This document shows, piece by piece, positions 1,739 through 4,179 of a DNA stretch of 4,179 bases. A model generated the notes under the pieces. That model made no database searches and had not been told where the DNA came from. It saw nothing but the letters and a program-made list of their open reading frames with translations. The translations under genes were made by a program, and so were the position numbers. The number at the start of each line of letters is the position of its first letter. Positions within the stretch are counted from its first letter, which is position 1. The DNA is from a virus (Duplodnaviria; Heunggongvirae; Uroviricota; Caudoviricetes), in IMG/VR virus record IMGVR_UViG_2671181019_000011. One strand, given 5' to 3'.

Positions 1739-1945
1739 ATGGAAGCAATCAGAAAAATTATCTTTCGCCAGGAAGTAAAAAAAATTATCCACATCAAGGC
1801 AGACAGCACGCTGCAAAGCATGATCAACGCCGGAGAATTTCCGCAGGGTTTTCGCGCTGGTTTACGCCGTCGCGGATGGTATGAGGATGATGTGTTGGCC
1901 TGGCAGAAAGAACGCGAACAGGAAGCACGCGGAACGGCTGCTTAA
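1739..1945 (+). CDS. AlpA-family / excisionase-like HTH regulatory protein (68 aa)
   Basis: ATG 1739 with AAGGT 8 nt upstream; TAA 1943-1945. Size and sequence pattern (IIFRQEV...STLQSMINAGEFPQGFRAGLRRRGWYEDDVLAWQ) match the AlpA/Vis/Xis-type small HTH proteins found next to P4-like integrases. Family-level recognition only. Confidence 0.7.
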   Translation: MEAIRKIIFRQEVKKIIHIKADSTLQSMINAGEFPQGFRAGLRRRGWYEDDVLAWQKEREQEARGTAA

Positions 1946-2650: not shown

Positions 2651-3211
2651 ATGGTTGCCGTAAATCATATACCACACCTTGTACACACACAAACGGCCTT
2701 TGTGTGGCGTTTTCTGGCCCTGAATATCGGAGAAAAAAACCAGTTGATCGCCAGTGTCGAAAATAGCTATGATTCCCGCGCACCTCATAAAACGGGTGCC
2801 GGGATTGGCGTCCTGGGCAAAACTGAAGCGCATAACACGCGCCCCGCGTGTTTTTTTGTGCCGCATAGTCACACCTTATCAATGGTGGGCTGTACGGGGG
2901 CGGAGCAATCCGCGCCGGTTTCTTCAGTGTCCGGTTACGCCAACCCTGCACAGTCCGCCACCAGCGAAATTGGCGTTTCCGGTGGCGGTTATCTTAACCA
3001 CACTGAGGAGGCTGCCAACATGGCTACTATCCCTACCCTTGTACATTCTCAAACCGCCTTTCTCTGGCGCTTTATCATCTTTGGCGCGTCAGAACATCAA
3101 ATCATCCACGTAACCGCCTGGACGGAACGCGAAGCGCGTAGCCGTTGCCCGTCCGGTTGTGTTGCTGTATTCGCCGCCCGTATTCGTCAGGAGGTGTGCC
3201 ATGTGCAATAA
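2651..3211 (+). CDS. Tandem Icd-like (host cell division inhibitor Icd-like) ORF: two Icd-like modules in one frame (186 aa as sequenced); the first module may be frameshifted
   Basis: AGGAG at 2641-2645, ATG 2651, TAA 3209-3211. N-terminal motif IPHLVHTQTAFVWRF repeats as IPTLVHSQTAFLWRF at residue 124. The modules are joined by a Gly/Ser/Ala-rich low-complexity stretch that coincides with GC-rich RNA hairpins. Icd-like assignment is from remembered family motifs, not a search. Confidence 0.45.
   Translation: MVAVNHIPHLVHTQTAFVWRFLALNIGEKNQLIASVENSYDSRAPHKTGAGIGVLGKTEAHNTRPACFFVPHSHTLSMVGCTGAEQSAPVSSVSGYANPAQSATSEIGVSGGGYLNHTEEAANMATIPTLVHSQTAFLWRFIIFGASEHQIIHVTAWTEREARSRCPSGCVAVFAARIRQEVCHVQ
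2897..3011 (+). promoter_or_regulatory. Structured RNA region upstream of the second Icd-like start: two hairpins plus anti-SD pairing (candidate C4/CI-like antisense RNA or translational control element)
   Basis: Hairpin 1: 2898-2904 / 2909-2916 with GCAA tetraloop. Hairpin 2: CCGCCACC 2955-2962 / GGTGGCGG 2981-2988. Long-range pairing 2921-2930 (UCUUCAGUGU) with 3000-3009 (ACACUGAGGA) sequesters part of the SD (AGGAGG 3006-3011). Confidence 0.3.
3020..3211 (+). CDS. Icd-like protein, second module, expressed from an internal start (63 aa)
   Basis: Strong SD AGGAGG at 3006-3011 with 8-nt spacing to ATG 3020. Product MATIPTLVHSQTAFLWRF...TEREARSRCPSGCVAVFAARIRQEVCHVQ has the size and motifs of a small Icd-like protein. 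Confidence 0.55.
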   Translation: MATIPTLVHSQTAFLWRFIIFGASEHQIIHVTAWTEREARSRCPSGCVAVFAARIRQEVCHVQ

Positions 3212-3422
3212 AACCACACCGGACGCAGCAGCCGCCGCGCTCACTACGCTGATGCACGCGCTTATCGATATTGAATGCACTGCAGAGCTTGCGCAGGGAG
3301 AAGAACAGAAAGACCGGACACAGTTCGCCCTGGAATGTATCCGATACATCGCAACGCGGTCGCTGAATGACGCTAAAAATATTCTTGTTGCTGATTGTGA
3401 AAATGGGGGGGGTTATGCGTGA
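3201..3422 (+). CDS. Hypothetical small acidic protein (73 aa)
   Basis: AGGAGG at 3189-3194, 6-nt spacer, ATG 3201; overlaps the Icd-like stop by 11 nt. TGA at 3420-3422. An Ala-rich segment; no family recognised. Confidence 0.6.
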   Translation: MCNKTTPDAAAAALTTLMHALIDIECTAELAQGEEQKDRTQFALECIRYIATRSLNDAKNILVADCENGGGYA

Positions 3423-3648
3423 TGATCGTTTTAATTCCCTGAAACAAGAATTTTCCGGCGTTCCTGATGATGCGGCTGATGCGCTTTCGTCAATGCCAGA
3501 ACTTATTAGAGCGGCTTTTTTCTTACTTTCCACGAGAGAATATAAATCAACGGGGCTTGATGTACTGAATATCGCCGCCGATTATGCGGAATATGTGGCA
3601 GAGGCGCGTTATAGAAGAAAATTTCCTGAGGATGTAAGCCATGCGTGA
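3415..3648 (+). CDS. Hypothetical protein (77 aa)
   Basis: ATG 3415 overlaps the upstream stop within ATGCGTGA; a G8 tract (3405-3412) serves as SD. TGA at 3646-3648. No family recognised. Confidence 0.55.
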   Translation: MRDDRFNSLKQEFSGVPDDAADALSSMPELIRAAFFLLSTREYKSTGLDVLNIAADYAEYVAEARYRRKFPEDVSHA

Positions 3649-3874
3649 TATTTACCACCAAACAATAGACCGCGCATTTCTTGCACTTTCTCACAGTGAA
3701 AACATGCTGGAAATATTGCGCATATGGCTTGAAACACTTGGCGACAATGAACGCGACAAACAAAAATCAAGAATTGCCACGGCATTAATAACGCTTCTTG
3801 AGCCTGTAATAATGGAACTGCAAGAAATAGATCTATTGCACGACAGATATAAAGAACAGCACACCGGAGAATAA
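3641..3874 (+). CDS. Hypothetical protein (77 aa)
   Basis: ATG 3641 overlaps the upstream stop within the same ATGCGTGA motif; GAGGA 7 nt upstream. TAA at 3872-3874. No family recognised. Confidence 0.55.
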   Translation: MRDIYHQTIDRAFLALSHSENMLEILRIWLETLGDNERDKQKSRIATALITLLEPVIMELQEIDLLHDRYKEQHTGE

Positions 3875-3879
3875 AAATA

Positions 3880-4179
3880 ATGAAACTTAAATATTCTGGC
3901 TTAACTGCCAGTGGCAACACTCACCCTAAATTTACGCGCGGTGATATTTACCGCGACCAGTACGGCGGCACGGTAATGATTAAGGGCGTGGCGGGACGGT
4001 GCGTAACTTACCGCCGTGAAGGTTACGAATATGATTGCGTGATGCCTGTTTATCAGTTCCGGCGTGATTTTTCTCTGGTACAGACCGCGCCGCATAACGT
4101 GCCCACCAGCAACGCCAGGGCACGGGCAAACATCCAGAAGCTGAAAACCATGATTAACGGATTCAGGGGCAAGAAATGA
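3880..4179 (+). CDS. Hypothetical protein (99 aa)
   Basis: GGAGA at 3866-3870, 9-nt spacer, ATG 3880; TGA at 4177-4179 (window end). Basic C-terminus (ARARANIQKLKTMINGFRGKK). No family recognised. Confidence 0.6.
   Translation: MKLKYSGLTASGNTHPKFTRGDIYRDQYGGTVMIKGVAGRCVTYRREGYEYDCVMPVYQFRRDFSLVQTAPHNVPTSNARARANIQKLKTMINGFRGKK

Follow-up and report, generated by a model that had tools for sequence, protein, structure and literature searches.

Phage-inducible chromosomal islands (PICIs) of Gram-negative bacteria and the phage satellite P4 are the closest described systems to the DNA analysed here, a stretch of 4,179 nucleotides from the IMG/VR virus record IMGVR_UViG_2671181019_000011 (Caudoviricetes), henceforth referred to as the window. 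The analysis concerns four small open reading frames, ORF1 to ORF4, at positions 3201–4179, and the element that carries them. The PICI layout has been divided into four zones, Integration-Bro-Replication-Late, and matches to C4 and isrK RNAs in the Bro zone have already been noted (PMC10111431). In the island EcCICFT073, AlpA is induced by the helper and activates the rightward operon, and induction and transfer by helper phage at high frequency have been shown (PMC6092414). The early genes of P4 follow the order cI, epsilon, orf151, cnr (orf106) and alpha, and the P4 CI RNA pairs with seqA-type sites, terminating early transcription (PMC10111431).

One small PICI protein has been described in its own right. 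RgdR (ECs1581) contains a DUF4222 domain and an RGD motif according to a review of the island regulators of enterohaemorrhagic E. coli (EHEC) (PMC10877973), and all E. coli PICIs analysed in an earlier study encode it (PMC6092414). ECs1581 and its CFT073 orthologue C1493 activate the LEE1 promoter of the enterocyte effacement locus (LEE) and type III secretion and repress motility; purified ECs1581 binds DNA without sequence specificity, and orthologues also occur in LEE-negative strains (PMC3378721). Apart from RgdR as a virulence regulator, no function was found in the literature searched for the genes between the Bro zone and the primase (PMC6092414, PMC10111431).

A first-pass annotation made from the letters of the window had described the four frames as a translationally coupled operon comparable in position to small genes of P4, and had proposed roles in helper-phage interaction, anti-repression or anti-defence. 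The results presented below indicate that the region probably makes up the promoter-distal portion of a PICI's rightward early operon, in which small cistrons would be made together with the replicase and RgdR, the predicted product of ORF4, would serve the replication initiator.

Results

Identification of ORF4 as an RgdR orthologue

ORF4 (3880..4179, + strand) encodes a basic protein of 99 amino acids (pI 10.2) that matches Pfam DUF4222 (PF13973) over all 53 profile positions (1-53/53) with 82.1 bits (cut-off 27; E = 2.1e-23). Alignment with ECs1581 from the Sp7 island of strain Sakai was gapless over 99 aa, with 78% identity and 83% positives, and ORF4 thus lies within the definition of an orthologue used in the original paper (>77% 'homology' over 99 aa). 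The residues reported to be functionally important, R20, G21, D22 and K35, are all present. Of these four, G21 (nearly invariant, in ~70% of sequences) and D22 (~90%) alone are largely conserved in the wider DUF4222 family, and position 20 is usually P. The 22 substitutions between ORF4 and Sakai RgdR are mostly located in the N-terminal 20 and the C-terminal 30 residues. Judged by these alignments, ORF4 is the orthologue of RgdR/ECs1581. It also resembles RgdR of Sp7/O-island 51 in its length, in its domain and in its site, where it overlaps the primase gene of the island; the two differ in the gene that follows, a RepA-like AAA_25 helicase in the closest relatives of ORF4 versus a DUF927 protein in Sp7. 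The first-pass annotation had assigned none of the four proteins to a known family, which holds for ORF1–3 as regards characterised families but not for ORF4.

The DUF4222 family is small; among 1.84 billion proteins it has 45 representatives at 50% identity. A tblastn search of ORF4 against 50,697 phage records returned a single match, a 59-aa DUF4222 protein in a Klebsiella phage fragment, and a DNA search of the whole module against the phage collection returned none. The single record (PV189483.1, 'Klebsiella phage KpnBHU6', 8587 bp, unverified) encodes an antirepressor C-terminal domain, the 59-aa DUF4222 protein, a DnaD-like initiator and a methyltransferase-like ORF, and may represent the replication region of a prophage or satellite and not a complete phage.

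Coupling of DUF4222 genes to replication initiators

The stop codon of ORF4 is part of an ATGA sequence (4176..4179, + strand) in which the start codon of the next gene overlaps it by 4 nt. This initiator ATG at 4176 is the one part of the replication module that lies within the window; the gene itself extends beyond it and was read from near-identical relatives. [quoted passage not shown] The junction was followed through a scan of IMG/VR with ORF3, which yielded 80 loci and is the basis of the gene-order and junction counts given here. In the E. coli satellite loci the DUF4222 stop overlapped the initiator start by 4 nt in every case (80/80), and the genes that followed encoded an AAA_25 RepA-like helicase, a D5_N/DUF5906/Pox_D5 primase or a DUF927 protein.

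The same arrangement was observed outside E. coli. An island of Citrobacter amalonaticus encodes a DUF4222 protein at 38% identity with the same 4-nt overlap, followed by a RepA-like AAA_25 protein. In a metagenomic clade ~35% identical to ORF4, the 4-nt initiator overlap was present in 44 of the 46 assessable loci, and all ten representative downstream proteins (10/10) were identified by Pfam as D5_N/DUF5906, Zn-ribbon+Toprim+D5_N, DUF927 or Zn-ribbon+Toprim+DUF927 proteins. In the Klebsiella phage fragment, the 59-aa DUF4222 protein, which consists of the barrel alone, overlaps an HTH_36/DnaD_N/Phg_2220_C initiator. A scan of genome contigs for DUF4222 gave 2 loci, and three single distant DUF4222 members searched in viral contigs gave no match. 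At least four unrelated initiator families follow DUF4222.

Since this junction is kept across unrelated initiators and across genera, unlike what is expected of virulence cargo, we infer that DUF4222 serves or controls the initiation of satellite replication. Taken with the predicted fold described below and the published non-specific DNA binding, the gene neighbourhood, which is the strongest of the new lines of evidence, suggests that RgdR acts with or regulates the satellite's replication initiator. Because the initiators are mutually unrelated, a common target is more likely to be DNA or a host factor than an initiator fold. For ORF4, the neighbourhood thus points to the element's own initiator and away from the manipulation of a helper that had been proposed for all four genes.

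Predicted structure of ORF4

An AlphaFold2 model of ORF4 built from 39 homologues had a mean predicted local distance difference test (pLDDT) score of 76, rising to ~91 in the core (residues 20-68). It predicts a Tudor/SH3-like barrel of five strands (~20-68) with a short helix, and a basic C-terminal helix (77-96). The N-terminal peptide is disordered in the model yet its sequence is conserved across the family. Structural comparison placed 5dma_A and 9dqs_A first, followed by CarD, Spt5 KOW domains and DUF1653, and a Foldseek search of the BFVD viral models returned only uncharacterised and DUF1653 proteins. The modelled barrel would thus share its fold with the C-terminal Tudor domain of UvrD/PcrA, the RNA-polymerase-interacting domain of CarD and the KOW domains of Spt5/NusG. 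Identity to the UvrD/PcrA/CarD Tudor domains in the structural alignments was 13-17%, which falls short of sequence homology, and phmmer and profile searches of Protein Data Bank (PDB) chains with the ORF4 family gave no match. In view of this lack of a sequence relation to solved chains, the fold is called Tudor/SH3-like here and is not filed in the UvrD/PcrA/CarD families. Unlike those domains, ORF4 is free-standing and carries an extra conserved N-terminal peptide together with the basic C-terminal helix.

The coupled gene chain

ORF4 is the last of five cistrons that precede the replicase gene. The first is an Icd-like ORF of 63 aa (3020..3211, + strand; NCBIfam NF033153 phage_ICD_like, E = 1.4e-15), which is followed on the same strand by ORF1 (3201..3422, 73 aa, pI 4.5), ORF2 (3415..3648, 77 aa, pI 4.8), ORF3 (3641..3874, 77 aa, pI 5.1) and ORF4. 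The Icd-like gene overlaps ORF1 by 11 nt, ORF1 overlaps ORF2 and ORF2 overlaps ORF3 by 8 nt each, a 5-nt spacer separates ORF3 from ORF4, and the 4-nt overlap described above links the chain to the replicase gene. Shine-Dalgarno-like sequences are found at 3189-3194 (AGGAGG), 3405-3412 (a run of G), 3628-3632 (GAGGA) and 3866-3870 (GGAGA), such that a purine-rich stretch lies 2-9 nt 5' of each of the four start codons. The description of four frames of 73, 77, 77 and 99 aa with overlaps or minimal spacing and their own Shine-Dalgarno sequences was thus confirmed, as was their coupling to the Icd-like gene upstream.

All IMG/VR loci on contigs of sufficient length retained the order ORF1-ORF2-ORF3-ORF4. 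The ORF3-ORF4 spacing was +5 in 81/81 cases in the E. coli satellite loci, the ORF2-ORF3 junction was either -8 or +1 across the IMG/VR loci, and the junction of the Icd-like gene with ORF1 was -11 in 40 loci and differed where an extra small ORF was inserted. Pairwise ratios of non-synonymous to synonymous substitution (dN/dS), calculated by the Nei-Gojobori method on unique alleles, were 0.34, 0.27, 0.40 and 0.34 for ORF1 to ORF4, respectively, with no internal stops in the copies examined. ORF1–4 are therefore conserved protein-coding genes under purifying selection.

The 8-nt overlap motif ATGCGTGA is common to the ORF1/ORF2 junction (3415-3422) and the ORF2/ORF3 junction (3641-3648), which is why ORF2 and ORF3 both begin with M-R-D. 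Two alleles of the ORF2 C-terminus were observed, one ending in '...AEYVAEARYRRKFPEDVSHA' with the -8 junction to ORF3 and the other in '...ADFVTEVILRKTTDGD' with the +1 junction. The shared overlap and the two alleles hint at an exchange of modules via recombination at the junctions.

No terminator-like site or hairpin was found on the + strand within 3201-4179. A promoter-like site at 3785-3813, upstream of ORF4, was dropped from consideration, given that the region held 6 such sites versus 4.0 +/- 2.2 in shuffled sequence. The long - strand ORFs at 3102-3533, 3506-3763 and 3609-3920 were judged spurious, as family matches, annotation and codon-level conservation favour the + strand frames.

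Approximately a quarter of related islands carry an optional fifth small acidic frame, ORF X (76-77 aa), between the Icd-like gene and ORF1. Examples are found in L001 (13778-14011), L003 (8781-9011) and a further locus, L004 (3876-4067); the window lacks this frame. ORF X has a homologue of 63 aa in ECs1579. Paralogy among ORF1–4 and ORF X was considered and rejected, with all hhalign probabilities below 1%.

The poly-G tract between ORF1 and ORF2

The junction of ORF1 and ORF2 contains a tract of eight G (3405..3412, + strand) that encodes a glycine run in ORF1 and supplies the Shine-Dalgarno sequence of ORF2. It is directly followed by TT and then by the ATG of ORF2, which is kept directly after the tract in all tract states. 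The 154 positions of phrog_2512 span both genes, as the first half (positions 1-76/154) matches ORF1 and the second half (78-154/154, E = 1.8e-49) matches ORF2; the two also match phrog_5146 and phrog_24341, respectively.

Tract length was counted in 80 instances of the junction. Seven G were present in 18 instances, 16 of them fused into a single ORF of 144-170 aa, and eight G in 27, of which 26 are split as in the window. Nine G (10 instances) gave a split arrangement with ORF1 extended by 28 nt, ten G (3) a fused one, and eleven G occurred once; the remaining 21/80 instances have no run of at least six G before the ATG. Overall, ORF1 and ORF2 are fused (~150 aa) in approximately a third of the tract-bearing relatives. 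When instances were grouped by identical flanks (150 nt upstream and 200 nt downstream), more than one tract length was found in 7 of the 12 groups, indicating that the tract changes faster than its surroundings.

This variation represents either slipped-strand variation or homopolymer error. Full-length fused ORFs occur on several different haplotypes, which argues that at least some fused alleles are real. Split and fusion depending on the tract would account for inconsistent 'frameshifted' annotations such as that of the near-identical island of strain RM8385, in which the Prokaryotic Genome Annotation Pipeline (PGAP) marks ORF1+ORF2 as a frameshifted pseudogene. It may be speculated that ORF1 and ORF2 are halves of one protein that is split or fused by poly-G length. 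A second homopolymer, a T6 run in ORF2 (3516-3521), is the exact site at which several database proteins are frameshifted ('...AAFSYFPRENINQRGLMY').

ORF1–3 and the comparison with P4

The products of ORF1–3 are acidic (pI 4.5-5.1, net charge -4 to -6) and fall in PHROGs of unknown function. No family was found for any of them in Pfam or NCBIfam, tblastn against the 50,697 phage records detected no homologue, and PADLOC defence-system models matched none of ORF1–4. Sequence and profile searches of PDB chains with all four families gave nothing below E = 0.25. The four genes were thus not all placed in well-characterised housekeeping phage families, the outcome that the first-pass annotation had named as contradicting it. 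ORF3 was modelled with a pLDDT of 89.9 as a long hairpin of two α-helices. Its remote homologue ECs1580 occupies the equivalent position in the Sakai Sp7 island, and further homologues at 28-30% identity were found in two distant satellites. ORF2 has 122 homologues, all from E. coli or Shigella where the source names the organism, and most of them are stand-alone proteins of 73-89 aa. ORF1 and ORF2 were not found in the Sakai, Citrobacter or metagenomic islands, in which other small ORFs lie between the Icd-like gene and DUF4222. A conserved frame, from the Icd-like gene to the DUF4222-initiator pair, therefore encloses a lineage-variable slot of small ORFs. Such a slot is compatible with helper- or host-directed factors; speculatively, the products of ORF1–3 most likely bind further proteins, whether from the helper, from the host or from the island itself.

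The first-pass annotation had placed these genes in parallel with the small genes that follow the immunity region of P4, and the parallel stands as far as position is concerned. In each element, small genes joined by 8-nt overlaps form a chain that separates an RNA immunity region from a primase gene, and in both a small gene immediately precedes the initiator (cnr before alpha in P4, ORF4 here). The spacing differs, with cnr and alpha 14 nt apart in P4 versus the 4-nt overlap of ORF4 with the initiator. No homology accompanies the positional likeness. ORF1–3 gave no Pfam match and ORF4 matched only DUF4222, while P4 epsilon itself scored 170 bits against the epsilon family (PF25738). BLASTP of ORF1–4 against P4 epsilon, orf151 and cnr gave nothing better than E = 0.08, and hhalign was not significant. 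As none of ORF1–4 is related to these three P4 proteins, the analogy with P4 extends to position and no further.

In P4, orf151 (7440-7895, - strand) carries the motifs 'PGEIYR' and 'PLGRFLREF', which mark the ends of the DUF4222 barrel, with a longer insert between them. ORF4 and orf151 matched at E = 0.09 by BLASTP and at 6-14% by hhalign, mainly through one 'P..RF.REF' motif even when an orf151 family profile was used, and the likeness is regarded as an unconfirmed lead. If it were true, a DUF4222-like gene would be present in P4 as well, in the interval from the immunity region to alpha. Weak BLASTP matches of ORF X and ECs1579 to cnr were lost in hhalign. In P4, Cnr acts through the alpha protein to control copy number, and RgdR may be comparable to Cnr in position and logic.

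Type and layout of the element

The window belongs to a Gram-negative PICI of the kind typified by EcCICFT073, with a P4-type RNA immunity pair (isrK and C4), and not, in the strict sense, to a P4-like satellite. Its left end has the arrangement of a PICI, with a P4-type tyrosine integrase (int, 1-1242, + strand) followed by a co-oriented alpA-type gene (1739..1945, + strand). The latter encodes an AlpA-like helix-turn-helix regulator that matches the excisionase/regulator families phrog_66/2790 and, weakly, Pfam Phage_AlpA/HTH_17, and it is 31% identical to P4 Vis. The isrK-type RNA (2780..2856, + strand), which corresponds to a P4 seqA-like target with terminator, scored 66 bits against Rfam RF01394 (gathering score 50, E = 4.5e-13) and contains a terminator-like hairpin at 2834-2852. 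The C4/CI-type antisense immunity RNA (2878..2965, + strand) scored 73.8 bits against RF01695 (gathering score 45, E = 1.1e-13). The four-zone PICI layout is matched by int and alpA on the left, the Icd/Ash 'Bro zone', replication and late genes.

Relatives extend the comparison beyond the window. Full islands measure 8.5-11 kb, and the near-identical ones adjoin tRNA-Pro (yejM side) while related ones are located in tqsA. They encode a primase or RepA helicase, SSB, the small terminase (terS), a major capsid protein and a head-decoration protein, and no tail, lysis, sid, delta or psu genes were found in the annotated islands. Their small size, own attachment site and few morphogenesis genes are those of a PICI. 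The capsid and decoration genes match c1499 and c1500, respectively, of EcCICFT073 (PMC6092414), whereas P4 has sid, delta and psu in their place. Copies that are 96.8-98.3% identical to the module are present in CFT073-like strains, Nissle 1917 and many other strains, and the 979 nt of the module were matched in 1360 of 5426 complete E. coli genomes (~a quarter), 783 of them over >=80% of the length. It is a further copy from a well-described satellite class, and for one of its four genes a name and a partial characterisation already exist.

Two copies of a 46-nt direct repeat (76% identity; 2668-2713 and 3028-3073) encode the N-terminus of the Icd-like protein twice (IPHLVHTQTAFVWRF, IPTLVHSQTAFLWRF) and flank the cassette of isrK and C4 RNAs. 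The Sakai island has one uninterrupted Icd-like gene of 65 aa without the RNA cassette. Taken together, the flanking repeats and the uninterrupted Sakai gene make the cassette look like an insertion into a duplicated Icd-like gene. A single long ORF (2651-3211) spans both repeats and matches Pfam 'Ash', a match that may largely reflect conserved RNA sequence.

Two small genes are located on the - strand between the alpA-type gene and this region (2094-2282 and 2325-2516), with Arc/HicB/YlcI-like (ribbon-helix-helix) and phrog_21027 matches. A + strand ORF at 1960-2625 (221 aa, rich in Cys, Ser and Arg) overlaps both of them; it is ECs_1576 in the Sakai annotation and an Icd-like pseudogene according to PGAP, and is probably a mis-annotation. 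Two 17-nt direct repeats, TTGACAAGTGGTCACCT (2510-2526) and TTGTTAGGTGGTCACCT (2545-2561), lie 35 nt apart at the start of the ribbon-helix-helix gene (2325-2516), upstream of the Icd/RNA region, and each contains the palindrome GGTCACC. They are candidate operators for the small repressor-like ribbon-helix-helix protein.

Discussion

The data are best accommodated by a PICI early operon in which RgdR would act for the initiator. By analogy with EcCICFT073 AlpA and with termination at P4 seqA-type sites by CI RNA, the chain would probably be silent in the resting island until helper phage induces AlpA, and AlpA-driven transcription would then read through the isrK/C4 terminator region. Ribosomes would re-initiate from gene to gene, such that the replicase would be produced along with the small proteins. 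The modelled barrel of RgdR could provide protein contact and its basic C-terminal helix could bind DNA, and RgdR would influence LEE and motility in EHEC as a by-product of this initiator-linked activity.

Several observations weigh against this account. The initiators that follow DUF4222 are unrelated, which makes direct specific contact with all of them unlikely, and the adjacency of RgdR and the replicase could merely mirror a common expression signal. The only RgdR phenotypes published concern LEE and motility, and deletion of ecs1581 altered type III secretion in uninduced cultures (PMC3378721). The latter result implies that rgdR is expressed without island induction, which fits a host-directed regulator too. 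With regard to the tract, the differences in poly-G length could partly be homopolymer sequencing or assembly errors, and the frameshifts at the T6 run indicate that some homopolymer differences in public assemblies of the module are errors.

A stronger version of the proposal, which we regard as possible but doubtful, joins two claims: that DUF4222/RgdR is by origin a universal, translationally coupled initiator partner and not a virulence regulator, and that the poly-G tract is a genuine slippage switch. RgdR would then be a Tudor-like adaptor with a basic DNA-binding helix that serves any of at least four initiator families. A protein that works with unrelated initiators would have to act on something they share, for instance RNA polymerase, a replisome factor of the host, or the origin DNA or nucleoid state. 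The increase in LEE expression and the decrease in motility would be spill-over of a replication-linked activity, and an hns-like phenotype would give this pair of effects.

An unlikely alternative, though the foremost of those that assign the module a different purpose, is that ORF1–3 especially are early satellite weapons against the helper, acting by derepression or interference as P4 epsilon does on P2. Their position is equal to that of epsilon, orf151 and cnr, and their absence from 50,697 phage records suggests satellite-specific genes that are not phage-derived. They are small and acidic, with a confident helical hairpin in ORF3, like many protein-binding inhibitors, and the content of the slot varies by satellite lineage as would be expected of arms-race genes. 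Against this, they show no similarity to epsilon (PF25738), orf151 or cnr, their dN/dS of 0.27-0.40 gives no sign of diversifying selection, and no experimental data on them were found in the literature searched. PICI induction, moreover, consists of the helper acting on alpA and not the reverse (PMC6092414). The lineage-variable slot remains, as noted, compatible with helper-directed factors within the PICI early operon favoured here. A further point against a role as weapons is that the known interference function of E. coli PICIs (Rpp) is reportedly located in the packaging module.

RgdR could instead be a host-directed virulence regulator, a 'moron' cargo that tunes LEE type III secretion and motility and whose place before the replicase is incidental. 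Deletion of ecs1581 lowers type III secretion and adherence, RgdR expression activates the LEE1 promoter and represses motility, and deletion of O-island 51 cuts shedding in sheep (PMC3378721; reviewed in PMC10877973). The family is nevertheless present in LEE-negative uropathogenic, probiotic and commensal strains (PMC3378721) and also, at 35-40% identity, in Citrobacter and in satellites from gut metagenomes. In the wider family P-G-D is usual and the R of RGD is not conserved, and a 4-nt initiator overlap kept in more than 120 loci and in unrelated families is atypical of cargo. This evidence makes a role as cargo improbable, and more so than a role of ORF1–3 against the helper.

There is very little to recommend the view that ORF1–3 are anti-defence proteins, such as DNA mimics or inhibitors of restriction or immunity, that are first expressed on entry or induction. 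Their acidity (pI 4.5-5.1, charge -4 to -6), their length of 73-77 aa, the early operon position and the lineage-variable slot would suit it, but they match no family with such a function and ORF3 is predicted to fold as a plain helical hairpin. PADLOC was negative as well, though it covers defence and not anti-defence. The charge density of ORF1–3 is modest beside known DNA mimics. The notion that some of the ORFs are chance frames or remnants of a decayed longer gene can practically be set aside: PGAP calls ORF1+ORF2 a frameshifted pseudogene in one near-identical island and the two are fused in other copies, but every copy examined lacks internal stops, each ORF has a dN/dS far below 1, ORF2 retains an ATG of its own with most database entries stand-alone at 73-89 aa, and the junction geometry is conserved.

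Three observations, the DUF4222-initiator coupling, the Tudor/SH3-like model and the poly-G-dependent split or fusion of ORF1 and ORF2, were not reported in the literature searched. They are modest, testable additions and not a new kind of system, and the overall picture of PICI biology is unchanged by the findings on the four-gene module. The split and fused forms of ORF1-ORF2 provide a minor case in which the gene structure of a mobile element is altered by a homopolymer tract. A large fraction of E. coli genomes contain PICIs, which mobilise genes for virulence and defence, and RgdR has so far been treated only as an EHEC virulence regulator. The strict coupling of DUF4222 to the initiator could account for the influence that a gene of a satellite has gained over LEE expression.

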